Part shown: positions 8,854 to 61,211 of the stretch, in pieces | How positions within the stretch are numbered: position 1 is the first letter of the stretch | Layout: each line of letters begins with the position of its first letter | Assembly (NCBI GenBank): GCA_022767125.1 | Contig: JALEPZ010000034.1 | Coordinates: 16,840-80,839 of the forward strand | DNA from: Phocaeicola plebeius | Lineage (GTDB): Bacteria > Bacteroidota > Bacteroidia > Bacteroidales > Bacteroidaceae | Direction of reading: 5' to 3' | Length of the DNA: 64,000 nucleotides | Notes under the pieces: generated by a model | What the model was told of the DNA's origin: nothing | Database searches by the model: none | What the model saw: only the letters and a program-made list of their open reading frames with translations | Program-made: the position numbers and the translations under genes

Positions 8854-9139
8854 GTTCCAAAAGATGCTTCGAGGAACCATCTGCCAGCCCTCCGTCAGGA
8901 TGGAAACGCACCACCAGGCGCGGAGGCACCAGCATCCGCTGGCCCGTCACGGGATTCCGGGTGATATGCTCCAGCTCCTTGTCGACGACAAATGACCCGA
9001 AGCCTTCCATCCGCACGTCGTGGCCTTCCTGCAACTCTTGCCCGATGGCGTCGGCCACCGATGCTGCCAGTACCCCCGCCTGTTCCACGGTCATGTCCGT
9101 CTGCTGGGCCAATGCTTCCAGATATTCCTTGTAATTCAT
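8846..9139 (-). CDS. HU family DNA-binding protein
   Basis: GFGSFVV and RNPVTGQRMLVPP motifs. Confidence 0.88.
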   Translation of the reverse strand: MNYKEYLEALAQQTDMTVEQAGVLAASVADAIGQELQEGHDVRMEGFGSFVVDKELEHITRNPVTGQRMLVPPRLVVRFHPDGGLADGSSKHLLEHE

Positions 9140-9168
9140 GTATTCACCTCCTTGTTGTCAGCTTCGGT

Positions 9169-10467: not shown

Positions 10468-11429
10468 TTCTCAGCCGATGAACCAAACAGGGAATCCACA
10501 AACTCGCGGCGGCGGAAGATCTGCAGGTCCTCCATACCTTCGCCCAAACCGATGTATTTCACGGGAATCTTGAACTGGTCTGAAATGCCGATGACCACGC
10601 CTCCCTTGGCTGTACCGTCCAGCTTCGTGATGGCCATGGCATTCACCTCTGTTGCCAGCGTAAATTGCTTGGCCTGTTCAAATGCATTCTGGCCGGTCGA
10701 GCCGTCCAGCACCAGCAACACCTCATGCGGCGCGTCGGGCACCACTTTCTGCATCACCTTCTTGATCTTCGTCAATTCGTTCATCAGTCCCACCTTGTTG
10801 TGCAGACGACCTGCCGTATCGATGATAACCACATCGGCCTGGTTGGCCACGGCCGAACTCAGCGTATCAAATGCCACGGAAGCCGGGTCTGACCCCATCT
10901 TCTGCTTCACCACCGGCACTCCTACCCGTTCGCCCCAGATGAGCAGTTGCTCCACTGCTGCGGCCCGGAACGTATCCGCTGCACCGAGATAGACGGACTT
11001 CCCTGCCTTCTTGAACTGGTAGGCCATCTTTCCGATAGTGGTCGTCTTGCCTACTCCATTGACACCGACTACCATAATGACATAGGGCTTCTTGTCAGAA
11101 GGTACACCGAAATCATCCACATCGGAAGAGTTGTTTTCAGTGAGCAAAGCGGCAATTTCCTCGCGCAGTATATTATTGAGTTCTTGTGTATTAATATACT
11201 TGTCCTTAGCCACTCGGGTCTCAATGCGCTTGATGATTTTCAGCGTAGTCTCCACGCCCACATCCGATGTAATCAGCACCTCTTCCAGATTGTCCAGCAC
11301 CTCATCGTCTACTTTCGACTTGCCGGCCACGGCGCGTGCGATTTTGCCGAACACACTTTCCTTGGTCTTCGACAGGCCCTTATCGAGCGTCTCTTTCTTT
11401 TCCTTCGAGAAAAAACTAAAAAATCCCAT
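10464..11429 (-). CDS. ftsY: SRP receptor FtsY
   Basis: GVNGVGKTTT, DTFRAAA, DTAGR, TKLDGTAKGG. Confidence 0.97.
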   Translation of the reverse strand: MGFFSFFSKEKKETLDKGLSKTKESVFGKIARAVAGKSKVDDEVLDNLEEVLITSDVGVETTLKIIKRIETRVAKDKYINTQELNNILREEIAALLTENNSSDVDDFGVPSDKKPYVIMVVGVNGVGKTTTIGKMAYQFKKAGKSVYLGAADTFRAAAVEQLLIWGERVGVPVVKQKMGSDPASVAFDTLSSAVANQADVVIIDTAGRLHNKVGLMNELTKIKKVMQKVVPDAPHEVLLVLDGSTGQNAFEQAKQFTLATEVNAMAITKLDGTAKGGVVIGISDQFKIPVKYIGLGEGMEDLQIFRRREFVDSLFGSSAEK

Positions 11430-11457
11430 ACTACAATGTTATTATCTGTTTATGACA

Positions 11458-11465
11458 CAAAGATA
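11458..11465 (-). promoter_or_regulatory. -7 promoter box for ftsY-rimO
   Basis: TATCTTTG on the minus strand, just downstream of a terminator and about 30 bp upstream of ftsY. Confidence 0.65.
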
Positions 11466-11486
11466 TAACTAATCTTGAAGACACGC

Positions 11487-11527
11487 AAAAAAAAAGTTCC
11501 TCTCATGAATGCTGAAAGGAACTTTTT
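11487..11527 (-). terminator. Intrinsic terminator of the rpmB-rpmG-DUF4295 operon
   Basis: Stem AAAAGTTCCT...AGGAACTTTT followed by a U-run on the minus strand. Confidence 0.75.
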
Positions 11528-11552
11528 ATGCTTCATATTGCGTATAACGCGA

Positions 11553-11708
11553 TTATTTCTTGAAGAAGTCCTGAACTTTTTCGTTAGGAACCATCTGTTC
11601 ATCGAAGACGTAAGCACCGGTTTTGGGCGACTTTACCATCTTGATAACCTTTGTATAAGAACGTCCTTCTTTACCTGTCTGGAGGGTTGCGACTGTTTTC
11701 TTTGCCAT
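11553..11708 (-). CDS. DUF4295 family small protein (51 aa; absent from the supplied ORF track)
   Basis: Hand translation gives MAKKTVATLQTGKEGRSYTKVIKMVKSPKTGAYVFDEQMVPNEKVQDFFKK; it occupies the conserved position after rpmG. Confidence 0.9.
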   Translation of the reverse strand: MAKKTVATLQTGKEGRSYTKVIKMVKSPKTGAYVFDEQMVPNEKVQDFFKK

Positions 11709-11717
11709 GGTCTACAA

Positions 11718-11906
11718 TTATTTAATTTCTTTGTGAACTGTTACTCTTTTCAAAATCGGATTGTACTTCTTCAGTTCCAATCTTTCGGGGGTATTCTTTC
11801 TGTTCTTCGTCGTAATGTAACGAGAAGTTCCCGGCATACCGCTATCTTTCATTTCCGTGCATTCAAGGATAACCTGAACTCTATTTCCTTTAGCCTTCTT
11901 AGCCAT
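11718..11906 (-). CDS. rpmG: 50S ribosomal protein L33
   Basis: [10 protein letters not shown]...[23 protein letters not shown]. Confidence 0.97.
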
Positions 11907-11925
11907 AGTTTTACTCTCCTTTTAA

Positions 11926-12186
11926 TTAACCAATAATTTTGATAGTTTTCCAATCACAATAACCTTTGGCAACAGCTTCATTCAGCGCAGCGTCCAGGCC
12001 CTTCTTGTTGATAATACGCAAGCCGTTAGCACAAATGTTCAGGCTAATCCAGCAATCCTGTTCTACATAGTAGAATTTCTTTGTAAACAAGTTCACATCG
12101 AACGTTCTTTTCGTTCTTCTCTTAGAGTGTGAAACATTGTTGCCAATCATGGCTTTTTTTCCGGTAATTTGACAAATTTTCGACAT
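11926..12186 (-). CDS. rpmB: 50S ribosomal protein L28
   Basis: [27 protein letters not shown]. Confidence 0.97.
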
Positions 12187-12289
12187 TTCTATCTAGTTTT
12201 TATAGTTTATTCCTTAGTTCTACCAAACGGAGTGCAAAGTAAGTGATTTTATTTGAAATGCACAAACTTTTCACCGACATTTTGCAATT

Positions 12290-12790
12290 TCATTGTTCAT
12301 TTTCGTGATTTTGTACCAATTCCAACAGCATACTCAAGGATTTTTTAGTGGCAGCATGCACATTCAGTTCGCGGCCGTTGTCTTCCTCCAATTTGGCAGT
12401 AATCACTTTTTCCTTACTTCCTGCGGCAATCCAGATAGTTCCTACGGGTTTCTCCGGCGTACCTCCGCCCGGTCCGGCAATGCCAGAAGTAGCAATAGCA
12501 AAACGGGCATGGAAAGCATCAAGGGCTCCATCCACCATTTCACGAACCGTTTCTTCGCTCACCGCCCCGTAGGTGTCCAATGTTTCAGCTTTCACGTGCA
12601 GCAACTCTTGCTTTGCCTCATTGGCATAAGCCACGATGCCGCCTTTATAGAAACGGGAACTACCAGGGATAGCAGTTATATTGGCCGCTACATTGCCTGC
12701 CGTACAGCTCTCTGCAGTAGCCAAGGTAAATCCTTCTTTCCAGAAGATTTCACTTATTTCCTTACTGAGTGTTTTTGTTTCTACAGTCAT
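12290..12790 (-). CDS. cinA: CinA C-terminal family protein (NMN deamidase PncC-like)
   Basis: ATAESCTAG, GAVSEETV, SGIAGPGGG. Confidence 0.9.
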   Translation of the reverse strand: MTVETKTLSKEISEIFWKEGFTLATAESCTAGNVAANITAIPGSSRFYKGGIVAYANEAKQELLHVKAETLDTYGAVSEETVREMVDGALDAFHARFAIATSGIAGPGGGTPEKPVGTIWIAAGSKEKVITAKLEEDNGRELNVHAATKKSLSMLLELVQNHENEQ

Positions 12791-12842
12791 TTTTCTTGTT
12801 ATCGGTTAATTTATAATTGGTATTAGTTGTACATGTTTATAA

Positions 12843-13862
12843 TCATAGGCTCACCCGCGAATAGGCGGGCTGGTCAATGGTGCAGAAATCCTTGTCCTGA
12901 TACTTAAAATGGCCAGTGATGCCAATCATTGCCGCATTGTCCGTGGTGTAGCCGAACTTAGGAATGAAAATGTTCCATCCGTATTTTGCAGCATGCTCAT
13001 GGAAGGCATTGCGCAAGCCGGTATTGGCCGAAACACCGCCTGCTACAGCCACTTCGCGGATGCCTGTCGCCTTCACCGCCTTCCGGAGCTTGTCCATCAG
13101 GATGTCTACCACCGTCTTTTCAAGCGAGGCGGCCAAGTCTTCCTGATGGTGGGCCACAAAGTCGGGATCGTCCTTCAACCAGTCGCGCAGCGAATAGAGG
13201 AACGAAGTCTTCAGCCCGCTGAAGCTGTAATCCAGGCCAGGAGTATGCGGCTTGCTGAACGTATAGGCCAGAGGGTTACCCTGACGCGCCAAGCGGTCGA
13301 TGACAGGCCCGCCGGGATAGCCCAGCCCCATCACTTTAGAACATTTGTCGATGGCCTCACCGGCGGCATCGTCGATGGTCTGCCCCAACACTTCCATCCG
13401 GTTGTAGGCATTTACACGGATTATCTGCGAATTGCCTCCCGACACCAGCAGACAAAGGAACGGGAAGCGGGGCTGACGGTTATCGTCTTCCGACTCCTTG
13501 ATAAAATGGGCCAATACGTGTCCCTGCAGATGGTTGACATCAATCATCGGAATGCCCAACGCACGGGCAAAGCCTTTTGCGAACGATACGCCGACCAGCA
13601 GCGACCCCATCAGGCCCGGACCACGGGTAAAGGCCACCGCACTGAGCTGTTCCTTGCATACACCAGCCCGCTTCAGGGCCTCATGGACAACCGGAACGAT
13701 GTTCTGCTGGTGGGCACGCGATGCCAGTTCGGGCACCACGCCTCCATACGCTTCGTGTACCGCCTGACTGGCGATAACGCTCGACAACAGTACACCATTC
13801 TTCAGCACAGCTGCCGAAGTATCATCACACGACGACTCAATTCCTAGAATAATCGTATCCAT
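12843..13862 (-). CDS. tsaD: tRNA N6-threonylcarbamoyltransferase TsaD
   Basis: GIESSCDDT, GGVVPELASRAH, NHLQGH, DDAAGEA. Confidence 0.97.
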   Translation of the reverse strand: MDTIILGIESSCDDTSAAVLKNGVLLSSVIASQAVHEAYGGVVPELASRAHQQNIVPVVHEALKRAGVCKEQLSAVAFTRGPGLMGSLLVGVSFAKGFARALGIPMIDVNHLQGHVLAHFIKESEDDNRQPRFPFLCLLVSGGNSQIIRVNAYNRMEVLGQTIDDAAGEAIDKCSKVMGLGYPGGPVIDRLARQGNPLAYTFSKPHTPGLDYSFSGLKTSFLYSLRDWLKDDPDFVAHHQEDLAASLEKTVVDILMDKLRKAVKATGIREVAVAGGVSANTGLRNAFHEHAAKYGWNIFIPKFGYTTDNAAMIGITGHFKYQDKDFCTIDQPAYSRVSL

Positions 13863-13886
13863 TCCTTACCTTATTATATATAGTGC

Positions 13887-14741
13887 CTAATAAGTCAATA
13901 TTTCCAGCCCGTTTTCTGTCATCACGAAGGTGTGTTCCCACTGGGCCGAAGGCAATTCATCTTCTGTCACTACGGTCCATCCGTCCTCCTCGTCAATGAA
14001 GACCTCCCAAGTTCCCATATTAATCATCGGCTCTATGGTAAACACCATACCCGGCACCAGCAGCATCCCGGTACCTTTTTTACCATAGTGCACCACGTCG
14101 GGCTCCTCGTGAAATTTCACTCCCACCCCGTGACCGCACAGGTCGCGCACCACTGAAAAGCCGTTCTTCTTGGCATGCTTCTCGATGGCATTGCCGATAT
14201 CGCCCACAAAGCTGAACGGACGGGCGGCCTGCATACCGATTTCCAAACATTCCTTAGCCACATCCACGAGTTTCTGTTTCTGGGGAGTCGTCTTCCCGAT
14301 GACGAACATCCGCGAAGCATCAGCATAGTAGCCGTCAAGAATGGTCGTACAGTCCACGTTCACAATGTCACCCTCTTCCAGAATTTCGTCCTCACTCGGG
14401 ATACCGTGGCAGACCACTTCGTTGATGGAAGTGCATACGCTCTTCGGGAAGCCCTCATAGCCCAGACAGGCTGGAATGCCCCCATGAGCTACCGTATAGT
14501 CGTAGACCAGCCGGTCGATTTCTGCCGTACTCATGCCGGCATGAATCTGTTCGGCCACCCGATCCAGCACGGCCGTATTCAGTAACCCGCTCCTGCGGAT
14601 GCCTTCTATCTGTTCCGGAGTCTTGATCAGATCACGGGTAGGCACCAAGTGCCCCTTGTTCTGATAATACAGCACCTGCTTGTCCAGTTCGGTCAGTTCG
14701 GCACCTTTCGGAATCCTCCAGTTGTTTTTCTTTCTCATCAT
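13887..14741 (-). CDS. map: Type I methionine aminopeptidase (paralog with N-terminal extension)
   Basis: CTSINEVVCHGIP, GHGVG, FTIEPM, SAQWEHT. Confidence 0.95.
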   Translation of the reverse strand: MMRKKNNWRIPKGAELTELDKQVLYYQNKGHLVPTRDLIKTPEQIEGIRRSGLLNTAVLDRVAEQIHAGMSTAEIDRLVYDYTVAHGGIPACLGYEGFPKSVCTSINEVVCHGIPSEDEILEEGDIVNVDCTTILDGYYADASRMFVIGKTTPQKQKLVDVAKECLEIGMQAARPFSFVGDIGNAIEKHAKKNGFSVVRDLCGHGVGVKFHEEPDVVHYGKKGTGMLLVPGMVFTIEPMINMGTWEVFIDEEDGWTVVTEDELPSAQWEHTFVMTENGLEILTY

Positions 14742-14766
14742 AACCTTCCTTTCAATAAAAGTCGTG

Positions 14767-14774
14767 CAAAGTTA
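14767..14774 (-). promoter_or_regulatory. -7 promoter box for map-tsaD
   Basis: TAACTTTG on the minus strand, about 25 bp upstream of map. Confidence 0.6.
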
Positions 14775-14925
14775 GCAGAAAAATCAGAAACCCACTGCAT
14801 ATTCCACAAAAAACTGAAATGAAAAGCCCAAGAATCCCTCCTGCCATCAGCACTCCCTTACTAACAAATTATTTGTTATTCTTGATTTTTTATGGTAAAT
14901 AGTTGGAATTCTCAATTCAATTCCA

Positions 14926-14933
14926 TATATTTG
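14926..14933 (+). promoter_or_regulatory. -7 promoter box for the DUF2582 gene
   Basis: TATATTTG with TTG about 20 bp upstream. Confidence 0.6.
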
Positions 14934-14987
14934 CTTCAGCAATAAGCAAAAAACTAAAACGTACAATTTAACTAAAGGAGGAATAGT

Positions 14988-15206
14988 ATGGACAAACATC
15001 AAATTGGCACAAACGCCGGCATCGTGTGGAACGTGTTAAAAGACAATTCGCATTGGGAATATCATGATCTGAAAAATGCTACAGGACTTTCTGACAGGGA
15101 TTTGAACGCCGCCATCGGTTGGCTGGCGCGTGAAAACAAAGTAGATTTCGATCTCGACCATTGTCAAGACCGCTTATTCTTAAGCGTGAACGTGTACATC
15201 GGATAA
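14988..15206 (+). CDS. Winged-helix protein (DUF2582-like)
   Basis: IGTNAGIVW...AAIGWLARENK family signature. Confidence 0.85.
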   Translation: MDKHQIGTNAGIVWNVLKDNSHWEYHDLKNATGLSDRDLNAAIGWLARENKVDFDLDHCQDRLFLSVNVYIG

Positions 15207-15216
15207 AATGAATAAG

Positions 15217-51321: not shown

Positions 51322-51388
51322 GTGTTTTTCATGGTATTAGATTTAAGGTTAATGAAGATTGGGAATCTGGGAAGATTCCCTTTTTTTT
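51322..51388 (+). ncRNA. Candidate free-standing ~67-nt sRNA
   Basis: Promoter box, unstructured AU-rich body (GTGTTTTTCATGGTATTAGATTTAAGGTTAA) and strong intrinsic terminator; no ORF. Confidence 0.75.
51361..51388 (+). terminator. Intrinsic terminator of the sRNA candidate
   Basis: GGGAATCT-GGGA-AGATTCCC followed by T8. Confidence 0.88.
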
Positions 51389-51471
51389 GCTGCATCCGGA
51401 AGCCTTCAAAGGAGAAAGCTGAGCAGCAGAAGAAAGGAGACGATTAGAGAGACGTGCCATAATAACAATCC

Positions 51472-51555: not shown

Positions 51556-52899
51556 TTACCGACTGGAGGGCGAAGTGTCCCCAATTGCCTGACAATGTCT
51601 ACGATGGAACGCCTCAATTCTTTCCCGAAAGAGCGGCTGGAGATCTTCAGAGAAGAACGAAGTACAGATGCGGACACCCTGCTGCGTCGACCCCATTGTA
51701 TCCAGCGGATAGACAGCAATGCCGTAATACATCAACTCACGCGTCAGCTGCAGGTCGTTCATTCCCGGATACTGTACGGTGAAATAAAAGCCATCAGCCA
51801 GCGGTGCCCCTAAGTCGTTGTCGTAAACAAGGTAGAATCCGTTGGAAAGTAACACTTCTTTCATGAACCGAGCACGGCGGCCGTATTCCTTCACATCGTC
51901 CAGGAAATTGTAGGAGCCGTCGCAAGCCGCTTCCATGAGTGCGGCCATGGCATGCTGCACACTGTGAGTAGTACCGCTGGAGAACGTGTACATCAGTCGG
52001 TTGGCAAAGAAATTGCCGAACTCACCCACGCCGAAATTCTCCTGCAGCGACGGGTATACACGGTGATAGAGGCGGTTGCTGATGCAGCAGACCCCGATGC
52101 GCTGGCCTGCGTAGGAAAAGGCCTTCGAGCCGGAAACAGAAAGCATATAGTTATCCGTATAGCGAGCTACTGTGGCCTGATAGGGTGCCTCAAAGGGGTG
52201 CGAGAGGTCACGACGGAAGTCCATGGCAAAATAAGCAAGGTCTTCCAGCACGATGAAATCATAGTGCGTAGCCAGACGACCGATGCCCTCCAGTTCTTCC
52301 TCGTTGAAACACACCCACGACGGGTTGTTGGGATTGGAATAGACGATTCCGCAGATATTATACTGGGATACCATTTCCTCCAGTTTGTCAATCAGGTCCT
52401 TGCCACGGTAGTCGTGGATATCGAGTCCGATATGGCGGATGCCGATGACATCACATTGCGTGGTCTGCACCGGAAATCCCGGATGGATGAACAGCACCGT
52501 TGGCTCGCCTTTCTCGTTGGTCACTGAAGCATGTTTCCAGATGGTGAAGGCGGCGAAGGTACCCTGCATAGACCCGGTAGTCGGTATGCAGCAGAGCGGG
52601 TCGATGTCCACCCCGATAAAGGCTTTGACAAACTGTGAAGCTGCCTGCTTGATGCGCGGTATTCCCCCATTGGGTGGGTAAATCGTAGCACACCCGTTGG
52701 CCAGAGCTTCCTGCTCCGCCTTCAAGGCGATGGCTGAGGGCTGCAGTCCTGGAACCCCCATCTCCAAGTGGATTACTTTCTCTCCGGTCTTTTCTTCCAG
52801 CGTCCGCGACAAGGCCTGAATGTCGCGGATGGTTGCTTGTGAGAAGTCACCGAGTCCCATCCGGTTAATGGTCTCGGTGACAATAGTATAGTCAAACAT
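51556..52899 (-). CDS. PLP-dependent aminotransferase class I/II
   Basis: HLEMGVPG, YSNPNNPSW, EDLAY, SGSKAFSYAGQRIG (PLP Lys). ATG at 52899. Confidence 0.92.
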   Translation of the reverse strand: MFDYTIVTETINRMGLGDFSQATIRDIQALSRTLEEKTGEKVIHLEMGVPGLQPSAIALKAEQEALANGCATIYPPNGGIPRIKQAASQFVKAFIGVDIDPLCCIPTTGSMQGTFAAFTIWKHASVTNEKGEPTVLFIHPGFPVQTTQCDVIGIRHIGLDIHDYRGKDLIDKLEEMVSQYNICGIVYSNPNNPSWVCFNEEELEGIGRLATHYDFIVLEDLAYFAMDFRRDLSHPFEAPYQATVARYTDNYMLSVSGSKAFSYAGQRIGVCCISNRLYHRVYPSLQENFGVGEFGNFFANRLMYTFSSGTTHSVQHAMAALMEAACDGSYNFLDDVKEYGRRARFMKEVLLSNGFYLVYDNDLGAPLADGFYFTVQYPGMNDLQLTRELMYYGIAVYPLDTMGSTQQGVRICTSFFSEDLQPLFRERIEAFHRRHCQAIGDTSPSSR

Positions 52900-52901
52900 G
52901 C

Positions 52902-54209
52902 TCAATTCTTGAAGTTTCTCTTATCGTTCACGTGTTTTGCCTTCCCGATGGAACGCTGAATCTGACCCGGCTCCTTGATGTGGATGTTCGGCTTGATGCC
53001 CACCATCGACACAATGCGGTCGTAGAGCGGCTTTATGTACGGCATCTGGCGGGAAGGATTAGGCGAGAAGTACTCGCTGCGGAGTTCCACGTCGAGGTCG
53101 AAGGTATCCTCGTTGTTCTTGCGGTCAACGGTGATGAAATACTGCGCCGTGAAGGCCGGGAACTCAGTGAGACAAGTCTCGATCTGGCTGGGGAACACGT
53201 TCACTCCGCGGATAATCATCATGTCATCGGAACGACCCAGGATGCGGTCCATGCGCACAGCCGTACGTCCGCATTCGCACTTGTCGTAGATGAGGCGCGT
53301 AAGGTCGCGGGTACGATAGCGGATAATCGGCATTGCCTCCTTGCAGAGCGACGTGAACACCAGTTCCCCGAACTCACCCGGTTCGCACGGTTCCAGCGTA
53401 TCGGGATTGATGATTTCGGGGAAAAACATATCTTCCCAGAGATGGGTACCGTTCTGGCATTCGCATTCGCCTCCCACTCCCGGTCCGCACATTTCCGTGA
53501 GTCCGTATATGTCGATGGCCTTGATGCCCAAGCGTTCCTGCAGTTCCTTGCGCATTCCCTCCGTCCAAGGTTCCGCACCGAAGAAACCGACTCGCAGTTT
53601 CAGGTCTTCCTTCTTTACGCTTTCGCTCTTCTCTATTACTTCCGCCAGGTGAAGGGCATACGAAGGCGTGCAGCAGAGCACCGACGAGCCGAAATCCTTC
53701 ATCAGCATGATCTGCTTCTCGGAGTTACCGGCCGAAGTAGGCAACTGCACGGCACCCAGCAGGCCGGCTGCATCGTGTGCACCAAGTCCTCCCGTAAAGA
53801 GTCCGTAGCCATAACTCACCTGAACAATGTCTCCCTTGGTGACACCGCCTGCCGCCATGACTCGAGCCGCCCCTTCCGCCCACATGGCGAGGTCGTTCTT
53901 GGTATAAGTGCCCACCACCGGCTTTCCGGTCGTGCCCGACGAAGCATGGATGCGTACCACCTCACTCTGCGGAACGGCCTGGAGGCCGAAAGGATATTCA
54001 TCGCGAAGGTCGTGCTTGGTAGTAAAAGGCAGACGATGGATGTCGTCAATCGATTTGATATCTTCGGGTTTGATGCCCATCTTGTCCATTTTCCGGCGAT
54101 AGAAGGGCACTTTCTCATAACATGTCTTTACGGTCTTGATAAGCCGCTCAGTCTGCAGCTTGCGCATAGACTCCCGGTCCATGCATTCCATTGCTCTGTT
54201 TAAAATCAT
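52902..54209 (-). CDS. paaK: Phenylacetate/aryl-acid--CoA ligase, copy 1
   Basis: HASSGTTGKP, YGYGLFTGGLG, DIYGLTEMCGPG, RYRTRD, GRSDDMMIIRGVNVFP. Confidence 0.93.
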   Translation of the reverse strand: MILNRAMECMDRESMRKLQTERLIKTVKTCYEKVPFYRRKMDKMGIKPEDIKSIDDIHRLPFTTKHDLRDEYPFGLQAVPQSEVVRIHASSGTTGKPVVGTYTKNDLAMWAEGAARVMAAGGVTKGDIVQVSYGYGLFTGGLGAHDAAGLLGAVQLPTSAGNSEKQIMLMKDFGSSVLCCTPSYALHLAEVIEKSESVKKEDLKLRVGFFGAEPWTEGMRKELQERLGIKAIDIYGLTEMCGPGVGGECECQNGTHLWEDMFFPEIINPDTLEPCEPGEFGELVFTSLCKEAMPIIRYRTRDLTRLIYDKCECGRTAVRMDRILGRSDDMMIIRGVNVFPSQIETCLTEFPAFTAQYFITVDRKNNEDTFDLDVELRSEYFSPNPSRQMPYIKPLYDRIVSMVGIKPNIHIKEPGQIQRSIGKAKHVNDKRNFKN

Positions 54210-54314
54210 AATCTATCAGTTTAAAGTTTCTTTCTTAAGTCAAATCATGGGCTGACCATCTCCGTGGTAAGGTCATCCGGACAATCAGGATTCCCCCTTC
54301 GCCCCTATCCCATT

Positions 54315-55874
54315 TTATTTATAGCAGTCGAAGATTCCGTCGACTATGCGGCGGTCCATCTTCGAGGTACAAAGACTAACGAGAGCCACCACCACGAAAC
54401 CGCCTACCATTGCCACCGCTCCACAATCTATCGGGTTTAGGAGGGCATTACCGAGCATCATGTTCACTACGGTCAGTCCAACCCCCCAGACGAAGCAAGC
54501 CCACACGGCAAGTCGGGTCACCCCTTTCCAGTAGAGGCCCATCAGGAACGGGGCAAGGAAAGCACCGGCAAGCGCTCCCCAGGAGATACCCATCAGCTGG
54601 GCAATGAACTGGGGCGGATTGAGGGCAATCATCAGTGAAAGGGCGATAAAGAACACGATGAACACCCGCATGACCAATACCTTCCGACGTTCAATCTTCT
54701 CGGCCACGAGGTCATCGATTTCACCGCCGGCCACCTCGCCTTCCTGCGATTTTTTATCGCGGTAGATGAGGTCGAGGGTCATGGTCGAAGAGGAAGTAAG
54801 TGCCAAAGAAGCAAGGGTGGACATAGAAGCCGAGAGAACCAGCAACACGACAAGGGCAATGAGTACATCGGGCAGGGTCTCCAGCATCGACGGTACAATG
54901 CTGTCGAAAGCATACTTCTGCTTCTCTACGCTGAAGGCCGGCTCAGGGAACAGACGGCCAAAGCCCCCAAGGAAGTAGCAGCCTCCCGCCACCACCAATG
55001 CAAAGATCGTGGAGATGATGGTGCCGCGGCGGATAGCCGACTCGTCGGTGATGGAATAAAACTTGCCGACCATCTGTGGCAGTCCCCATGTACCCAGCGA
55101 AGTAAGGATAACCACGCCGAGCAGACTCAGCGGAGCAGGCCCGAAGCAGGAGGCGAAATCGCCGGGCTGAAAGCGGGCGAAAAGCCCCGACTTGTCTTCC
55201 AGGTCATGGGCCGTCGGCACCGCCTCCCCCATCTTGGTTATTGCCTCCACAAGGCCACCCTGATGATGGAGTACCACGGCAATCACGGTCGAAATGCCGA
55301 AGAGCATGATAATGCCTTGAATGAAGTCGTTAATGGCCGTTGCCTTGTATCCACCGAGAATGACATAGACGGCGGTGAGCAGGGCCATGATGATGGCGCA
55401 GTAGGCATACGGAATTCCGAAGCCCATCTCGAAGAGTTTAGAGATACCCATATAGACACCTGCCGTGTAGGGGATGAGGAAGATAAAGGCAATGACGGAG
55501 GCCGCCACGCGAAGGCCCTCGTCTGCATACCGAGTGCCGAAGAAGTCGGGCATAGTGCGGCTCTGTATGTGCTGCGTCATCAGTTTGGTGCGTTTGCCCA
55601 GCACCAGCCACGCCAGCAACGAGCCGATAACGGCGTTGCCCACTCCGATCCACGATGCTGACATGCCGTATTTCCAGCCGAATTGGCCGGCGTAGCCCAC
55701 GAACACGACAGCAGAAAAATAAGAGGTGCCATAAGCAAAGGCAGTGAGCCAAGGACCCACGGAACGTCCGCCCAGTACGAAGCCGTCGACCGACTTCGCC
55801 TGCTTTCTCGAATACACTCCCACTGCTACTGTGACGCAGAGGAAGATAATGGTCAATAAAATCTTGATGAACAT
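54315..55874 (-). CDS. Sodium:solute symporter (SSS) family
   Basis: GFVLGGRSVGPWL, YVILGG, SASMST and about 13 TM segments. ATG at 55874. Confidence 0.92.
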   Translation of the reverse strand: MFIKILLTIIFLCVTVAVGVYSRKQAKSVDGFVLGGRSVGPWLTAFAYGTSYFSAVVFVGYAGQFGWKYGMSASWIGVGNAVIGSLLAWLVLGKRTKLMTQHIQSRTMPDFFGTRYADEGLRVAASVIAFIFLIPYTAGVYMGISKLFEMGFGIPYAYCAIIMALLTAVYVILGGYKATAINDFIQGIIMLFGISTVIAVVLHHQGGLVEAITKMGEAVPTAHDLEDKSGLFARFQPGDFASCFGPAPLSLLGVVILTSLGTWGLPQMVGKFYSITDESAIRRGTIISTIFALVVAGGCYFLGGFGRLFPEPAFSVEKQKYAFDSIVPSMLETLPDVLIALVVLLVLSASMSTLASLALTSSSTMTLDLIYRDKKSQEGEVAGGEIDDLVAEKIERRKVLVMRVFIVFFIALSLMIALNPPQFIAQLMGISWGALAGAFLAPFLMGLYWKGVTRLAVWACFVWGVGLTVVNMMLGNALLNPIDCGAVAMVGGFVVVALVSLCTSKMDRRIVDGIFDCYK

Positions 55875-55888
55875 ATGCTGTATTTTTC

Positions 55889-56983
55889 TTAAAATGCCAC
55901 TTGCACCTGTGCCTGCAGCAGGCTCCGATTGTTCCCCTGCAATGCCTTCATGGCATCGCTGCGTAGGCTGTAGGTATATTGTGCCTGTACACGGCACTTC
56001 TTGAAGATCCAATACTGCAGTCCTGCCATGAGGTTTGTCTTCTTCAACCGGGCATCGGTATTATAGTTCATATAGTCGGCCATAGCCACTACATCCAGGC
56101 CTTTATAGACGGGAATGGCCGTCGAAAGGTAAGCTCCAAAACTCTTGCAGCCACCGTCCTTGCCGCCAATCAGCTCTGAGCGCACCACCGCACAACGATG
56201 GTGGTGGTAGTCGCTGCCCGCCCGCTTCGACTTCCACTCCACACCTGCCGAGTAACGGTTCTGGCGATAGGTATCGCCCACCTGCACGGTGGGGTTATAG
56301 GCGGAAGCGTTCATGGCCGTCCCGTAGCCCAGCTGTCCGGAAACAGACAACCGGAAGTTGGGAACCGGCTTGTATTCGAGTTTCGCAATCACGTTCTTCT
56401 TGTTGTCCTTGTCGGCAGCATTGGTCTGTCCGCCATTCACCACCTCCAGCACATAAAACAAGTGACCGCTGAAGAGGGATCCGTAAGCCATCAGTCCCAT
56501 GTCGCGGCCGGCAGGATTGCCCATCAAAGGATCGGCCCCACACAGCCAGAACACGCCCTGCGACATAGGCGAAATGCTCTCTAGCACGGTGGGCGACATG
56601 GGATTCTCCATAGAAATTTCCGTCTTTGACTGGCCAAATCGGAGGTTCAGTGCCTTTAACGGACGGTATTCGAGATAATACTCCTGCATGTCCTTACTCT
56701 TGAAGTCGTGCATAAAGAAAGCATAAAACTGGGGAGTGACGTTAGCTCCCACCATAAGGATGGCGCGGTACATTTCGAACGAATTGGCATTCTGGCCGTT
56801 CTCGGTCAGGGTGGCTGTGTAGCCGGCCTGCGCATATCCCGTCACTTTCAGGCGCGAGGCCACGGCATCGGCCCAGTATGCCACATCCTTCTCCTGGTTT
56901 GTTGCCGGAGGACTGGTCATCTCCCCCCATGCCATAGCTGCCGAAAACAGCCAGACAGCAAGGCCAACAAAGGTTTTTTTCAT
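55889..56983 (-). CDS. Outer-membrane porin (OprO/OprP-like)
   Basis: Signal peptide, amphipathic beta strands, GRDMGLM motif and terminal QVQVAF. Confidence 0.8.
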   Translation of the reverse strand: MKKTFVGLAVWLFSAAMAWGEMTSPPATNQEKDVAYWADAVASRLKVTGYAQAGYTATLTENGQNANSFEMYRAILMVGANVTPQFYAFFMHDFKSKDMQEYYLEYRPLKALNLRFGQSKTEISMENPMSPTVLESISPMSQGVFWLCGADPLMGNPAGRDMGLMAYGSLFSGHLFYVLEVVNGGQTNAADKDNKKNVIAKLEYKPVPNFRLSVSGQLGYGTAMNASAYNPTVQVGDTYRQNRYSAGVEWKSKRAGSDYHHHRCAVVRSELIGGKDGGCKSFGAYLSTAIPVYKGLDVVAMADYMNYNTDARLKKTNLMAGLQYWIFKKCRVQAQYTYSLRSDAMKALQGNNRSLLQAQVQVAF

Positions 56984-57414
56984 AAATCGATTTTTTTCAG
57001 TTCATTTTCAGTGATATAATCCAATTGGTTCAGCATAATCGCTTCCTCTGCCTTGTCGGGACTGTCGGGACGAATCACCACAATGCCACATCCTCCGAAG
57101 AGGAACGAGTACATGTATTTGATTTCCACGCCGACCTGTGTTACCAGCCGGACGATTTCCGCTGCCGCCCCCGGCTGGTTGCTGGCAAGGCGGATGGCAT
57201 AGACATTGGTGATGGTAGCCGAGATGTTCTTGTCGCGCAACAGGCGGAAAGCCCTTTCTGGATCGTTGCAGATGATGCGGTAGATGCCGAACCCGTCGGT
57301 ATCGCCCAGTGTACTAACGATGATGCTGATGCCATTGTCACGCAACATTTCGAGAATCCGTAGCAACGCACCGCTACGGTTCTCGATAAAAATGGAAAGC
57401 TGTTTTATTGTCAT
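56980..57414 (-). CDS. Tandem-ACT-domain small protein
   Basis: MTIKQLSIFIENRSG...NQPG...IKYMYSF, typical of ACT proteins found beside paaK. Confidence 0.9.
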   Translation of the reverse strand: MTIKQLSIFIENRSGALLRILEMLRDNGISIIVSTLGDTDGFGIYRIICNDPERAFRLLRDKNISATITNVYAIRLASNQPGAAAEIVRLVTQVGVEIKYMYSFLFGGCGIVVIRPDSPDKAEEAIMLNQLDYITENELKKIDL

Positions 57415-57428
57415 ATTTCTTCTCTACA

Positions 57429-58763
57429 TTATTTATAAACGGTTCGCTTGTCTACTACGCGCACTGCCTTTCCTTCGCTGACGGGCAGCGTACCCTTGGG
57501 CACGAGCTTCACGATGGGGGTCAGCAGAATTTCATCCTTCAGTGCACGGGTGATGGACTTCTGCAGGGCCGTGAGCCGCTGGTAGTCGTCGGTGAAGAGC
57601 TGTTCCAATTCCACCTCCACGGTCATGTTATCGTTGTTCTCGTCGGTGGTGAGAGTGATGAGGTAGTTGTTGGCCAGCTCTTTGAACTGCATCAGGATCT
57701 TCTCGATCTGTATGGGGAAGATGTTCACTCCGCGCAGCACCATCATGTCGTCCGAGCGGCCTCTCATGCGGTCGATGCGCACGTGGTTGCGTCCGCAGGG
57801 GCAAGACCGTCCAAGCACCCGTGTCAAGTCGCGTGTGCGGTAGCGCAGCAGCGGCATGGCTTCGCGGTTGAGGGTGGTGAGCACCAGTTCGCCGATTTCT
57901 CCGTCGGGCACCGGTTCCAGCGTTTCGGGGTCCACAATCTCCACGATGTAGTAATCTTCCCAAAAGTGGAGTCCGTTTTGCTCCTTACATTCGAATCCTA
58001 CACCGGGTCCGCACATCTCCGACATGCCGAAGGAGTTGTAGGCCTTCACACCCATCATTTCTTCGATTCTCTGGCGCTGCTCTTCCGAGTGCGGCTCCGC
58101 ACCGATGGCCAGCACGCGCAGCTTTGTGTCGCGGCGGGGGTCAATGCCTTGCTCCACCATCACCTCGTGCAGGCGGGTCACGTACGACGGCACAGCATGT
58201 ACGGCAGTGGTTCCGAAGTCGGTCATAAACTTGATCTGGCGCAGCGAGTTGCCCGCCGCCGCCGGGATGGTCAGCATACCGATGCGTTCGGCCCCATATT
58301 GGAACCCGAGTCCTCCCGTAAACATGCCGTAGCCCGAAGAATTCTGGAACACATCGTCGGGACGCAGTCCCACCATCCACAGGTTGCGGGCCACCTGATT
58401 GGCCCACTCGTCGAGGTCTTTCTGGGTGTGCAGGATGACGGTAGGGTTACCGGTCGTTCCCGACGACGAATGCAGACGCACACATTCAGTAAGGGGCACA
58501 GAAGCAAGGCCGAACGGATACGTATCGCGAAGGTCCTGCTTGGTGGTGAAGGGAATGCGGCGGATGTCGTCTACGCACGTAATGCTCTCTGGCGACACGC
58601 CCGCTCTTTCCAGCCGTTCCTTATACACTGGGTTGTTCATACAGTGCGCCACAGTGGCCCGCAACCGGTCCACCTGCAGCGCAGCAATTTCCGTCCTCGA
58701 CATCGTCTCCCGTTCAGGGTCGAGGTATTCTGACTTCCAGTCAGGTAAAGGTCTTCTGTACAT
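57429..58763 (-). CDS. paaK: Phenylacetate/aryl-acid--CoA ligase, copy 2
   Basis: HSSSGTTGNP, GYGMFTGGLG, NSFGMSEMCGPG, RYRTRD, GRSDDMMVLRGVNIFP. Confidence 0.93.
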   Translation of the reverse strand: MYRRPLPDWKSEYLDPERETMSRTEIAALQVDRLRATVAHCMNNPVYKERLERAGVSPESITCVDDIRRIPFTTKQDLRDTYPFGLASVPLTECVRLHSSSGTTGNPTVILHTQKDLDEWANQVARNLWMVGLRPDDVFQNSSGYGMFTGGLGFQYGAERIGMLTIPAAAGNSLRQIKFMTDFGTTAVHAVPSYVTRLHEVMVEQGIDPRRDTKLRVLAIGAEPHSEEQRQRIEEMMGVKAYNSFGMSEMCGPGVGFECKEQNGLHFWEDYYIVEIVDPETLEPVPDGEIGELVLTTLNREAMPLLRYRTRDLTRVLGRSCPCGRNHVRIDRMRGRSDDMMVLRGVNIFPIQIEKILMQFKELANNYLITLTTDENNDNMTVEVELEQLFTDDYQRLTALQKSITRALKDEILLTPIVKLVPKGTLPVSEGKAVRVVDKRTVYK

Positions 58764-58769
58764 GCTTCT

Positions 58770-59342
58770 TCAATTGTTCGCCCCCTTGTCAAACGCCTTC
58801 AGGTTAGCCTCTACCACAGCCTCACCCTTGCGGGCAAAGATGTTGGCCACAGCGTTGCGCAGGGCTTCCGATGAAACGATTTCGATGTATTTCGCAGCCA
58901 TTCCCAGCAGCACCACGTTGGCCGAACGGGCCGAACCGGCTTCCTTGGCCACATTCTCGATGTCGAGCATGATGACTTTGTTGGGCAAGGCGTTCAGTTC
59001 GTCGAACAGTGCCTGCTCATCAGGATAGTTGGGAATGTTGACAAAGGGTTTGTTGCTGGTCACGATGACCCCGTCCTTAGCCAGATAAGGCAGATAGCGC
59101 AGGGCCTCCATCGGTTCCATGGAGATAATCATATCAGCTCCTCCCTTCTGGATCAGATCGCTATAGATGGTTGTCGTAGAAAGGCGGAGGTTCGACTGCA
59201 CGTCACCACCGCGCTGGCTCATGCCATGTACTTCCGCCTGTTTCAGGTGGATGCCCGCCAACGTGGCCGCTTCGCCGATAATAGTTGCAATGGAGAGGAT
59301 ACCTTGTCCTCCCACACCACACAATATAATGTCTTTTTTCAT
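58770..59342 (-). CDS. iorB: Indolepyruvate (arylpyruvate):ferredoxin oxidoreductase beta subunit
   Basis: GVGGQGIL, EVHGMSQRGGDV, ANVVLLG. Confidence 0.95.
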   Translation of the reverse strand: MKKDIILCGVGGQGILSIATIIGEAATLAGIHLKQAEVHGMSQRGGDVQSNLRLSTTTIYSDLIQKGGADMIISMEPMEALRYLPYLAKDGVIVTSNKPFVNIPNYPDEQALFDELNALPNKVIMLDIENVAKEAGSARSANVVLLGMAAKYIEIVSSEALRNAVANIFARKGEAVVEANLKAFDKGANN

Positions 59343-59357
59343 ACGTTCAAATAATGC

Positions 59358-60980
59358 TTAGTTCTTCTTTCTCTCCCGTGCGTGCCGGGCGGCCGTCTGA
59401 ATGCACTCGCGGCGCGGGATAATCACTGAGACTCCGTTGTACTCGATCTCTTCCTTAATGGTACGGGTTATTTCCTCCATGTTCTTCGGCAGGGGCACCA
59501 CCACGCGTACGTGTGCTGGATCTACGCCCAGGCCGATGCAGATAGCTTCGAACTTGTTGGTACCTGCCGAGTCCTGTCCGCCGGTCATGCCGGTGGTGAG
59601 GTTATCCGAAATGATTACCGTGATGTTCGACCCGTCGTTGACGGCATCGAGCAGTCCTGTCATACCGGAGTGAGTGAAAGTAGAGTCACCTATAACGGCA
59701 ATGGCAGGAAACAGTCCGGCATCGGCCGCTCCCTTGGCCATGGTGATAGACGCCCCCATGTCAACGCAGCTCGAGAGGGCCTTATAGGGCGGCAGTGCTC
59801 CGAGGGTATAGCAGCCGATGTCGCCAAAGATGCGATGGTCGGGATAGTCGGCAGCCACCTTGTTCAGGGCCGCATACACATCGCGGTGGCCACATCCCTG
59901 GCAGAGCTGGGGCGGACGGGCGGCAAGGTTCTTGGCCACGGGCAAAATGGCCGGCAGGTCCACGCCCATGGCAACAGCCACACAATCGGGTGTCAGTTCA
60001 CCGGTCCGGGGCAGTGTGCCTGTCAGCCTTCCCGTCACGGGGTAGTCCGTTCCGAGCATCCCCTTCACGGCCTCTTCCACCACAGGCTGTCCGTCTTCCA
60101 CCACGAGGATCTTTGCACTCTCATGGGCCAACTGGCGGATGCGCTCTTCCGAAAGCGGGTATTGCGACACCTTTTCTATATTATAGCAGGCCTGTTTCTC
60201 CAAGGGCAACTGGGCAATAGCCTCTTTCACGTAGTTGTAGCCGATGCCGCAGGCCACGATGCCCGTCTTCTCTACCGTAGGGACCGTTTCGCTATATTCG
60301 CTTCGGTTGAACGGCGACCGGTGGCTGGCTTGAATCATGTCAGCCTGCTTCCCGATTAGTGCGTCGTATTTCTTTCGGGCAATGCCGGGCAGCAACACCC
60401 ATGCGTCGGTAGAGATATGAAGAGCGTTCTGTTCGCGCGGTTCCTTCACCATCACTCCCGCACGGGAATGGGCCAGGCGGGTCACCACGCGCAGCAACAC
60501 GGGTTCCTTGATGGCCTCCGAATAGTCGAAAGCCACTTCCATCATATCATACGCCTCCTGTTGGTCGGAAGGTTCGAAGACAGGCAACAGGGCAAATTTT
60601 CCATAAAAGCGGGAATCCTGCTCATTCTGACTGGAATGCATCGAGGGGTCGTCGGCAGCCAGTACCACCAATCCGCCCTGTACGCCGGTAATGGCGCTGT
60701 TGATGAAAGCATCGGCACAGACATTCATGCCCACATGTTTCATGCAGACAAGAGCCCGCTTGCCTGCATACGACATTCCAAGGGCCGCCTCCATGGCTGT
60801 TTTCTCATTCGTACACCAGCGCGAATGGATGCCGCGCTCTTTGGCTAAGGGATGATGCTGGATGAACTCGGTAATTTCTGTCGAGGGGGTGCCGGGATAG
60901 GCATAAACTCCGCTCAGACCAGCATGTATGGCGCCGAGTGCAATCGCTTCATCTCCCAAAAGAAGTTTCTTTTCCATCAT
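59358..60980 (-). CDS. iorA: Indolepyruvate (arylpyruvate):ferredoxin oxidoreductase alpha subunit
   Basis: YAYPGTPSTEI, NEKTAME, RPPQLCQGCGHR, GDIGCY, ThDP motif GDSTFTHSG...N. Confidence 0.96.
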   Translation of the reverse strand: MMEKKLLLGDEAIALGAIHAGLSGVYAYPGTPSTEITEFIQHHPLAKERGIHSRWCTNEKTAMEAALGMSYAGKRALVCMKHVGMNVCADAFINSAITGVQGGLVVLAADDPSMHSSQNEQDSRFYGKFALLPVFEPSDQQEAYDMMEVAFDYSEAIKEPVLLRVVTRLAHSRAGVMVKEPREQNALHISTDAWVLLPGIARKKYDALIGKQADMIQASHRSPFNRSEYSETVPTVEKTGIVACGIGYNYVKEAIAQLPLEKQACYNIEKVSQYPLSEERIRQLAHESAKILVVEDGQPVVEEAVKGMLGTDYPVTGRLTGTLPRTGELTPDCVAVAMGVDLPAILPVAKNLAARPPQLCQGCGHRDVYAALNKVAADYPDHRIFGDIGCYTLGALPPYKALSSCVDMGASITMAKGAADAGLFPAIAVIGDSTFTHSGMTGLLDAVNDGSNITVIISDNLTTGMTGGQDSAGTNKFEAICIGLGVDPAHVRVVVPLPKNMEEITRTIKEEIEYNGVSVIIPRRECIQTAARHARERKKN

Positions 60981-61029: not shown

Positions 61030-61037
61030 CAAAGTTA
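61030..61037 (-). promoter_or_regulatory. -7 promoter box for the ior-paaK operon
   Basis: TAACTTTG on the minus strand, 50 bp upstream of iorA. Confidence 0.65.
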
Positions 61038-61211
61038 GCGTTTATTCTTTTAATAGCAACAAAAAATTACATTTTGTTTATGTATATAGGTATTTCGTAT
61101 ACAGTCGTATTTTGACATATCCTTACGAAGCTAATGCAACAGGCGGTAGGTCGGTTGCGAAATAAGGAATATCCTGGCAAGCGAAGCAAAGGGACTTTCG
61201 GCAGTGAATAC

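Follow-up and report, generated by a model that had tools for sequence, protein, structure and literature searches.

An operon of Phocaeicola plebeius that combines a predicted outer-membrane porin and a sodium symporter with aryl-acid genes: a candidate salvage system for aromatic amino acids

The 64,000-nucleotide stretch of the Phocaeicola plebeius genome analyzed here (GenBank assembly GCA_022767125.1, contig JALEPZ010000034.1, positions 16,840 to 80,839; hereinafter the window) contains eight co-directional minus-strand genes at 51556-60980. Open reading frames together with family scans identify these, in gene order, as iorA, iorB, paaK1, a gene for a pair of ACT domains, a porin, a Na+:solute symporter (SSS), paaK2, and an aminotransferase, bearing out all eight gene calls of a preliminary description of the locus. 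The successive spacers measure 15, 6, 14, -4, 11, 105, and -4 (or +2) bp, in agreement with its account of gaps of 15 bp or less, or overlaps, and a single gap of about 105 bp. The one promoter box that it placed ahead of the genes corresponds to a Bacteroidetes-type promoter (61030-61063, minus strand), recognizable in the sequence itself ~50 nt before the iorA start codon (ATG), with a -33 TTTG at 61060-61063 and a -7 TAACTTTG at 61030-61037; a sigma-70 scan of the iorA upstream region yielded nothing better. A scan for terminator-like structures recovered a G+C-rich hairpin at 51361-51380, 176 bp 3′ of the aminotransferase stop codon. An FopS sRNA match also occupies 51322-51390 on the plus strand, convergent with the operon, and the hairpin is possibly a two-way terminator common to both.

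The iorA gene (59358-60980, minus strand) codes for a 540-aa protein with POR_N and TPP_enzyme_C domains, the alpha subunit of an indolepyruvate/arylpyruvate:ferredoxin oxidoreductase (TIGR03336, 502.7 bits). The match extends over positions 2-542 of the 595-position model, so that the protein lacks the C-terminal 2x[4Fe-4S] ferredoxin part, as noted earlier from the sequence, and none of the eight genes of the operon codes for a ferredoxin. The Bacteroidales IorA homologs are all 527-564 aa long and without the ferredoxin domain, and those of Firmicutes are 573-574 aa long with two CxxCxxCxxxC motifs; on sequence comparison a ferredoxin-less IorA is normal for Bacteroidales. A 55-aa 2x[4Fe-4S] ferredoxin is encoded in the genome on C77. 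The beta subunit, encoded by iorB (58770-59342, minus strand), is a 190-aa protein scoring 296 bits with NF005324 (cut-off 222) and containing the PF01558 domain.

Both ligases, encoded by paaK1 (57429-58763, minus strand) and paaK2 (52902-54209, minus strand), combine AMP-binding and AMP-binding_C_2 domains and are classified as AMP-forming arylacetate-CoA ligases (TIGR02155, 461.6 and 537.6 bits, respectively), with 46% identity to each other. In the ligase tree, paaK1 belongs to the long-branched clade A, whose ligase genes always have an ACT gene following them; ligases of the paaK2 type (clade B) are flanked in relatives by genes for PaaI and an aminotransferase. The ACT gene (56980-57414, minus strand) specifies a stand-alone tandem-ACT protein of 144 aa (PF19571 ACT_8, 172.5 bits; closest solved structure 2f06, E 3e-25), presumed to be a small-molecule sensor partnering PaaK1. 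The last gene (minus strand, 51556-52899 if read from an ATG, or to 52905 from a TTG) codes for a class I/II PLP aminotransferase of 447-449 aa (PF00155, 71.9 bits) with the PLP lysine in the motif SGSK, whose closest solved structure is the putative aminotransferase 3g0t (E 3e-133); a homolog with 45-47% identity is carried by the core iorAB-aminotransferase-paaK-ACT operon of relatives in the same genus. At the position of the 105-bp spacer between the SSS gene and paaK2 (54210-54314, minus strand), the closest relatives have a gene for a 134-aa PaaI-type hydroxyphenylacetyl-CoA thioesterase (TIGR02286, 93.9 bits; gene maps of L013, L014, L015, L019, L021, L022, L024 and others), so that the operon, which looked complete in the earlier description, is not the full form. 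The PaaI gene is absent from the window, with no detectable remnant, and a 50% identical homolog is found elsewhere in the genome (C32:4591-4980).

The porin gene (55889-56983, minus strand) encodes a 364-aa outer-membrane protein with a signal peptide and a weak Porin_O_P match. Its AlphaFold2 model is a predicted 16-strand barrel (pLDDT 86.7, pTM 0.81) with OprP (2o4v) as the top structural match and the anion-selective Omp32 (2fgq) and 1e54 also among the top ones; this modeled likeness to the phosphate-specific OprP and to anion-selective porins would fit a carboxylate substrate. The SSS gene (54315-55877, minus strand; 520 aa; PF00474, 182 bits) is proposed to code for an arylacetate importer, although an amino acid itself could be its cargo. 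Its best family score is with PutP (189 against a cut-off of 515), followed by PanF (155 against 328); models of the ActP type give only 50-64 bits, far below their equivalog cut-offs. Orthologs were found in Prevotella, Lachnospiraceae, and Treponema, and in the SSS tree the Bacteroidales clade is nested among Firmicutes and Treponema sequences. That PutP and PanF are the best matches might suggest that the porin and SSS carry an unrelated solute (proline, pantothenate, or another small anion) and that their location is a genomic accident, but both scores fall far short of the cut-offs. Consistent with such an accident, the neighbors are unrelated in ~60% of the loci from Bacteroidales and in the majority of those from Lachnospiraceae, and none of the 24 searched genomes of the same genus has the SSS, though most still carry iorAB.

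Gene neighborhoods argue otherwise. The synteny search proposed in the preliminary description found the porin adjoining the SSS in 41 of 45 SSS-holding Bacteroidales loci, and ~17 of the 45, from Prevotella and other Bacteroidales, have adjacent ior, paaK, ACT, or aminotransferase genes in four different orders; because the same genes recur in so many shuffled loci, their linkage is more than chance. At two loci (L017 and L020) the porin-SSS pair adjoins a paaK1-type ligase alone, and where the pair stands by itself in Prevotella-type genomes, such a ligase is encoded elsewhere in 20/20. Among Firmicutes, SSS genes directly adjoin paaK-iorA-iorB-ACT-paaK-ACT clusters or the gene for an AMP-dependent ligase of 545 aa, and an adjacent aryl- or acyl-CoA ligase is seen in almost all subclades of the SSS tree. 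The association with the ligase is one-way only, since the paaK1 type is also present in 13 of the 24 same-genus genomes without the SSS. These relatives have iorA-iorB-aminotransferase-paaK-ACT at one locus and a two-gene paaK1-ACT unit at another, with neither porin nor SSS; the earlier statement that the paaK genes of Bacteroides thetaiotaomicron are split over two loci without transporters thus fits the same-genus genomes. Given insertions among aryl-acid genes that recur in four orders and two phyla, and the tyrosine-specific leaders and IorA co-occurrence described below, we regard an unrelated solute as very improbable.

A T-box leader lies directly upstream of the SSS ortholog in 16 of 29 Clostridia loci, and 14 of these 16 leaders contain the tyrosine specifier GAA-UAC-A; the SSS proteins behind them are 54-59% identical to that of the window. 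At three loci (L170, L171, and L172), the leader heads SSS-ligase-iorA-iorB(-paaK-ACT) operons, and induction of such operons by tyrosine starvation would be sensible only for synthesis. In most T-box loci, the leader sits before a lone SSS gene, and the separate ligase-iorAB loci of those Clostridia genomes show no T-box. Where a transporter gene alone stands behind such a T-box, the simplest reading is that its cargo is tyrosine itself, and the usual substrate of T-box-controlled transporters is the amino acid cognate to the leader. The operon could accordingly be anabolic with a porin and SSS that import an aromatic amino acid (tyrosine, perhaps phenylalanine or tryptophan), protonated aryl acids diffusing in passively, so that direct uptake would be combined with salvage synthesis; the best SSS family score, with the proline carrier PutP, points the same way, though far below the cut-off. 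Against this, IorA is present in 190 of 193 SSS-positive Clostridia genomes versus 117 of 206 SSS-negative ones (odds ratio 48, uncorrected for phylogeny or genome completeness), and a tyrosine carrier would not need IorA. Moreover, acid-CoA ligases are the commonest SSS neighbors across all subclades, the predicted porin fold resembles anion channels, several SSS members carry monocarboxylates, and we know of none that carries tyrosine; we therefore consider amino-acid import unlikely. The Bacteroidales loci are without T-boxes, and the regulatory evidence is transferred from orthologs in another phylum. This signal points to tyrosine or 4-hydroxyphenylacetate, rather than to the phenylacetate and indole-3-acetate stressed in the preliminary description.

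The gene set by itself is direction-symmetrical. The preliminary description took the porin, inward symporter, and aminotransferase as a sign of assimilation, but an importing, amino-acid-oxidizing operon would look alike: a sister cluster in another Bacteroidales family (L124) joins an ADP-forming acyl-CoA synthetase and VOR to an SSS and an aminotransferase 38% and 48% identical to those of the window, and is probably catabolic. Imported aromatic amino acids might be transaminated and oxidatively decarboxylated by IorAB to aryl-acetyl-CoA, with aryl acetates excreted via reversed PaaK (consuming AMP + PPi) or PaaI, and with a yield of reduced ferredoxin. IorAB mutants of B. thetaiotaomicron are said to make less phenylacetate, reportedly a result of Zhu et al. 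from 2023. Oxidative flux is real in this relative, whose IOR participates in the conversion of phenylalanine to phenylacetate (PMC13285125), 2-oxoacid:ferredoxin oxidoreductases are reversible, and a PaaI thioesterase lies within the clusters of close relatives. Yet the window has no PaaI gene, and tyrosine-starvation control of the orthologous Clostridia operons would be incompatible with tyrosine degradation. Besides, PaaI is found with PaaK in paa operons for acid activation, too. The operon has two AMP-forming ligases and no phosphotransacylase and kinase or ADP-forming synthetase, which favors assimilation, as the characterized oxidative clusters use a phosphotransacylase and kinase (PMC13285125). 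HpdDEFG/HpdJ/HpdK of Clostridium scatologenes (PMC13285125), like L124, share with the operon a 2-oxoacid:ferredoxin oxidoreductase and a CoA-ester enzyme but conserve ATP through the phosphotransacylase and kinase or the ADP-forming synthetase. In one screen, quantifiable indole-3-acetate came from 0 of 66 Bacteroidota strains (bioRxiv 10.64898/2026.01.29.702580). We judge net catabolism to be quite improbable. The earlier assimilation reading is hence favored on grounds other than its own: the tyrosine T-boxes, the SSS-ligase adjacency, and the near-confinement of the SSS to genomes that carry IorA.

Synthesis of aromatic amino acids by an aryl-acid (IOR) pathway was reportedly described in Methanococcus maripaludis by Porat et al. 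in 2004. For rumen anaerobes, labeling of phenylalanine from phenylacetate (Allison, 1965) and of tryptophan from indoleacetate (Sauer et al., 1975) is listed in PMC7356843. Like the operon, these systems couple activation by an aryl-CoA ligase to reductive carboxylation of the IOR type and then to transamination, and de novo synthesis is present as well; the operon adds the porin and SSS, two ligase paralogs with an ACT partner, and a ferredoxin-less IorA. We know of no dedicated importers described for them, and to our knowledge the genes behind the rumen physiology have apparently never been firmly assigned. The B. thetaiotaomicron system likewise has a short Bacteroidales-type IorAB (PPFOR) and a co-located AMP-forming PaaK-type ligase; it is described genetically as a phenylacetate producer with no transporters reported, whereas the present locus brings all the genes together, with import genes and a second module of ligase and aminotransferase in addition. 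The IOR-adjacent ligase of Bacteroides is an arylacetate-CoA ligase in vitro, for which the authors suggest a biosynthetic role (PMC13285125). The Clostridia T-box operons share the orthologous SSS, IorAB, PaaK, and ACT and the logic of uptake, activation, and carboxylation, but have a tRNA-sensing leader, no porin (being monoderm), a ferredoxin domain on IorA, and in many cases the 545-aa FadD-like ligase, in place of the plain promoter and porin seen here. In Pseudomonas putida, PhaJ/PhaK (PaaL/PaaM) are said to serve the aerobic phenylacetyl-CoA catabolon as permease and porin for phenylacetate, reportedly the work of Olivera et al. in 1998. There too, a specific channel in the outer membrane, a permease of the SSS superfamily, and a PaaK ligase are encoded together for the capture of phenylacetate; the system is an analog and not an ortholog, in that the SSS of the window scores better with PutP and PanF than with the ActP type, to which PaaL presumably belongs, its porin is of the OprP/16-strand type, and the imported acid would be carboxylated anaerobically on the way to amino acids instead of having its ring cleaved aerobically.

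Taken together, we lean, somewhat past even, toward an operon that imports aryl acids and rebuilds aromatic amino acids from them. Aryl-acetate anions released by neighboring fermenters (4-hydroxyphenylacetate, phenylacetate, and perhaps indole-3-acetate being the candidates) would pass the outer membrane by way of the porin and be taken up by the SSS with Na+. The two AMP-forming ligases, probably differing in aryl specificity, would trap them as CoA thioesters, which IorAB would reductively carboxylate to arylpyruvates at the expense of a reduced, stand-alone ferredoxin whose gene lies elsewhere, and the aminotransferase would convert these to tyrosine, phenylalanine, or tryptophan, an end product that we infer the tandem-ACT protein to sense. 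As the enzymes are reversible, flux may reverse at amino-acid excess. While the chemistry itself has been on record from the 1960s on, we know of no earlier description of the outer-membrane channel and sodium symporter that accompany it here. On the earlier question of whether the genome has the shikimate and trp routes, it holds markers of de novo phenylalanine, tyrosine, and tryptophan synthesis; with no auxotrophy to satisfy, the route would be an optional, cost-saving, and non-essential form of salvage.

ORF calling on the minus strand of 51556-60980 recovers eight genes, identified through Pfam and NCBIfam as iorA, iorB, paaK1, a tandem-ACT gene, a porin, a Na+:solute symporter (SSS; 54315-55877), paaK2 and an aminotransferase, with successive spacers of 15, 6, 14, -4, 11, 105 and -4 (or +2) bp. 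At a distance of ~50 nt, iorA is preceded by a promoter of the Bacteroidetes type (TTTG - 22 nt - TAACTTTG), its boxes falling within the 376 bp that separate iorA from an upstream pseudouridine-synthase-like gene; Rfam contains no riboswitch or other known RNA matching the operon leader. The preliminary description had listed these genes, their spacing and the promoter accurately in every detail that the ORFs, domain profiles and sequence allow to be checked. A plus-strand gene for a FopS-family sRNA (51322-51390; RF04319, 75.7 bits, gathering score 56) runs towards the 3′ end of the operon and terminates in a hairpin at 51361-51380; the same region gives a weak secondary match to GibS in Rfam.

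By their domains, IorA and IorB are predicted members of the indolepyruvate:ferredoxin oxidoreductase (IOR) family: IorA (540 aa) combines POR_N and TPP-binding domains (PF01855 and PF02775) and matches TIGR03336 with 502.7 bits up to model position 542 of 595, and IorB has a POR (gamma-type) domain and scores 296 bits against NF005324 (cut-off 222). The C-terminal 2x[4Fe-4S] ferredoxin-like domain of the archaeal and Firmicutes enzymes is absent from this IorA, as had been noticed earlier; this absence is, however, no peculiarity of the operon, since all Bacteroidales IorA proteins examined (527-564 aa) have tails without Cys motifs, in contrast to the Firmicutes versions (573-574 aa), whose tails carry two CxxCxxCxxxC motifs. 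With IorA of ~540 aa also found in 30 of 41 relatives, the ferredoxin-less form is a lineage-wide trait. A 2x[4Fe-4S] ferredoxin of 55 aa is encoded elsewhere in the genome. An in-frame TAG reported inside IorA of several Clostridia genomes proved, in the two loci examined (L195 and L196), to be the natural stop, two residues before the alignment end.

PaaK1 (444 aa) and PaaK2 (435 aa) are PaaK-type ligases with 46% identity to each other, both carrying AMP-binding (PF00501) and PaaK-type C-terminal AMP-binding_C_2 (PF14535) domains. Their TIGR02155 scores (461.6 and 537.6 bits, respectively) lie under the equivalog cut-off of 646.3 bits, which marks them as family members rather than strict equivalogs of the aerobic PaaK; in a PaaK tree, three Bacteroidales clades match the modules of the operon. 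The stand-alone tandem-ACT protein, a homologue of structure 2f06, shows a full-length match to the ACT_8 family (PF19571, 172.5 bits, residues 1-141). For the remaining enzyme, the PF00155 match (71.9 bits, residues 43-416), an SGSK lysine motif and the similarity to structure 3g0t (E 3e-133) support assignment to the class I/II PLP aminotransferases, with an aromatic compound as its putative substrate. Ligase, IOR and aminotransferase, the enzymes of the aryl-acid pathway of Methanococcus maripaludis, thus stand together in one operon, whose chemistry matches that pathway and also the labelling physiology of rumen anaerobes; the IorAB and ligase of Bacteroides thetaiotaomicron are homologues of the operon enzymes.

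The operon had been described as looking complete, but its closest relatives have more: at the position of the 105-bp gap between SSS and paaK2 (54210-54314), the nearest relatives and several others have a gene for a 134-aa PaaI-type hydroxyphenylacetyl-CoA thioesterase (e.g., 11587-11991 in L013, a locus from another genome). No similarity to PaaI is detectable within the gap, which is compatible with either its loss or its never having been gained. A PaaI homologue with 50% identity is encoded elsewhere in the genome (contig C32, 4591-4980).

The SSS protein (520 aa) matches PF00474 with 182.3 bits over residues 33-455 (cut-off 22.8) and TIGR00813 with 171 bits, slightly below the cut-off of 184. 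It stays below the equivalog cut-offs of PutP (189 vs 515.5), PanF (155 vs 328), ActP (50-64 vs 750-1099) and MctC (79 vs 670); these scores place it in the sodium:solute symporter family, probably outside the PutP, PanF and ActP/PaaL-type subfamilies. The porin (364 aa), which has a signal peptide, gives a borderline Porin_O_P match (PF07396, 20.9 bits, exactly at the cut-off and spanning the last 60 residues only). Its AlphaFold2 model (pLDDT 86.7) is a 16-strand β-barrel, and the predicted fold resembles that of the phosphate-specific OprP (2o4v), the top Foldseek match (E 6.6e-14, TM 0.66), with general 16-strand porins nearly equal and the anion-selective Omp32 and 1e54 among the top structural matches. 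The invariant positions of the porin alignment include many Arg and Lys residues. The design parallels the porin, permease and ligase of Pseudomonas putida (PhaK, PhaJ and PaaK), but only by analogy: the SSS does not pass the ActP-type models, the branch to which PaaL belongs. In the literature searched, we found no description of the porin-SSS pair, of T-box control of this SSS family, or of the consolidated operon.

To examine the synteny that the preliminary description had proposed as a check, we retrieved the best 80 genomic loci encoding an SSS relative and mapped all eight operon proteins onto them. Among these, the closest public loci are from pig-gut Prevotella (SUG722, P2-180 and SUG272; SSS 90-92% identical), and the porin adjoins the SSS in 41 of the 45 Bacteroidales loci. 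About 17 of the 45 also contain ior, paaK, ACT or aminotransferase genes, in four gene orders: that of the window, iorAB-paaK2-AT-paaK1-ACT-porin-SSS, SSS-porin-iorAB-paaK1-ACT-PaaI-paaK2-AT and iorAB-AT-porin-SSS-paaK-paaK1-ACT (AT, aminotransferase). That the genes stay linked through rearrangement points to a common function. The porin-SSS pair of two loci (L017 and L020) lies next to a lone paaK1-type ligase gene. Same-genus relatives have a core iorA-iorB-AT-paaK-ACT operon plus a separate paaK1-ACT pair and no SSS. Measured against these split loci, the window operon is a consolidated, expanded form with iorAB, paaK1-ACT, porin-SSS and paaK2-AT as its four modules. A strict co-occurrence of SSS and paaK1-type ligase was rejected, as it is true one way only: the ligase is found in 20/20 SSS genomes tested, yet also in 13/24 same-genus genomes without SSS.

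Gene content alone leaves the direction of the pathway unsettled, as amino-acid import followed by transamination and oxidation would employ the same parts. For instance, a locus from another Bacteroidales family (L124; contig C19 of genome G037, 7215-15211) encodes an ADP-forming acyl-CoA synthetase, an SSS (38% identical to that of the window), an aminotransferase (48%) and a three-subunit VOR, and has the look of a catabolic counterpart, in mirror image, to the window operon. Given this symmetry, three independent lines of evidence were sought. T-boxes are gene switches turned on by uncharged cognate tRNA. Of 399 Clostridia genomes sampled, 193 encode a member of the SSS family, and in 16 of the best 29 Clostridia loci (L143-L163 and L170-L172 among them) Rfam recognizes a T-box leader immediately in front of the SSS gene, with a tyrosine codon in the specifier loop (GAA-UAC-A) in 14 of the 16. 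In three genomes (L170-L172) the Tyr T-box heads a tight operon of SSS, a 545-aa AMP-ligase, iorA and iorB, to which one adds paaK and ACT. Induction of IOR and ligase by tyrosine starvation makes sense only if tyrosine is made by them; this control of orthologous operons, observed in another phylum than that of the window organism, lends indirect support to a flow of aryl-acetate carbon into aromatic amino acids. The same observation speaks against a catabolic role for the operon, which would be in keeping with the related SSS and aminotransferase of L124 and with the oxidative flux reported for B. thetaiotaomicron IorAB (PMC13285125). Moreover, both operon ligases are AMP-forming, whereas characterised oxidative clusters use a phosphotransacylase plus kinase (PMC13285125), and we regard a catabolic operon as quite improbable. 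The ligase beside the Bacteroides IOR is active on aryl acetates in vitro, with a biosynthetic role suggested by the authors (PMC13285125), and none of 66 Bacteroidota strains screened had quantifiable indole-3-acetate production (bioRxiv 10.64898/2026.01.29.702580).

As to the cargo, the SSS tree has an aryl- or acyl-CoA ligase gene adjacent in almost every subclade. A transporter gene beside a CoA ligase gene usually signals acid capture, and that the SSS carries some unrelated solute seems very improbable. The pathway could also be anabolic with a carrier that imports the amino acid itself: tyrosine is the simplest cargo for an SSS that stands alone under T-box control, and the best score of the window SSS, though far under the cut-off, is to the proline carrier PutP. 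In genomes with a T-box-controlled SSS, no T-box was found within 3.5-5 kb upstream of the separate ligase-iorAB loci, which makes one common Tyr regulon less likely and favors such a carrier. No T-box was found either in the first Firmicutes loci in which the SSS abuts paaK-iorAB (L062, L067, L081, L089 and L091), which are thus under some other regulation; in the Lactonifactor longoviformis locus among these (L067), the SSS gene is closely followed by a group II intron domain (11691-11887; RF02001, 138 bits). Against a plain tyrosine carrier, which needs no IOR, IorA is present in 190/193 SSS-positive versus 117/206 SSS-negative Clostridia genomes (odds ratio 48, kinship and completeness ignored). 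On balance, we consider import of the amino acid unlikely, and aryl-acid import and assimilation remains the reading that we favor, as somewhat more probable than its negation.

Auxotrophy as a reason for the operon can be set aside, as the check for a shikimate/trp pathway envisaged at the outset turned up markers of de novo Phe, Tyr and Trp synthesis in the genome (prephenate dehydratase, chorismate synthase, a TyrA-like hit and TrpA); TrpA is also found in 12/12 other full-cluster genomes tested. The assembly (G000) has two full-length chorismate synthase genes (contigs C47, 54600-55628, and C92, 8325-9272; 464 and 370 bits, respectively); such a pair may reflect genuine paralogy or some contamination of the assembly.

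In the SSS tree, the Bacteroidales proteins are nested among Firmicutes and Treponema (L086 and L088) sequences, with the catabolic-looking L124 paralogue as a distant outgroup. This nesting, and the absence of the SSS from 24 same-genus genomes, suggests that it was acquired horizontally by Bacteroidales, with the porin recruited thereafter. We tentatively propose, as a conjecture that may well prove wrong, that this SSS family is a Na+-coupled importer of aryl acetates (4-hydroxyphenylacetate and phenylacetate), the first such in anaerobes, and occurs in roughly half the Clostridia genomes sampled; that it moved horizontally into Prevotella, where an OprP-like anion porin was recruited for uptake across two membranes; and that its carriers are net aryl-acetate consumers in gut and rumen.

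Aryl acetates connect gut protein fermentation with host disease markers, phenylacetate giving rise to phenylacetylglutamine and 4-hydroxyphenylacetate to p-cresol, and Bacteroidales IorAB is currently regarded as a producer of them. Should the operon run inward, abundant Prevotella and many Clostridia would instead be consumers, and it would be a mistake to read iorAB or paaK counts in metagenomes as a capacity for production; in Clostridia, the T-box is an easily verified sign of which way the pathway runs. A rumen physiology on record since 1965 now has candidate genes, transporters included, and the same cluster in a cultured isolate, Prevotella sp. P2-180, opens this old question to direct experiment. 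If the SSS is indeed an importer of aryl acetates, hosts rich in Prevotella could be less exposed to the precursors of phenylacetylglutamine and p-cresol.
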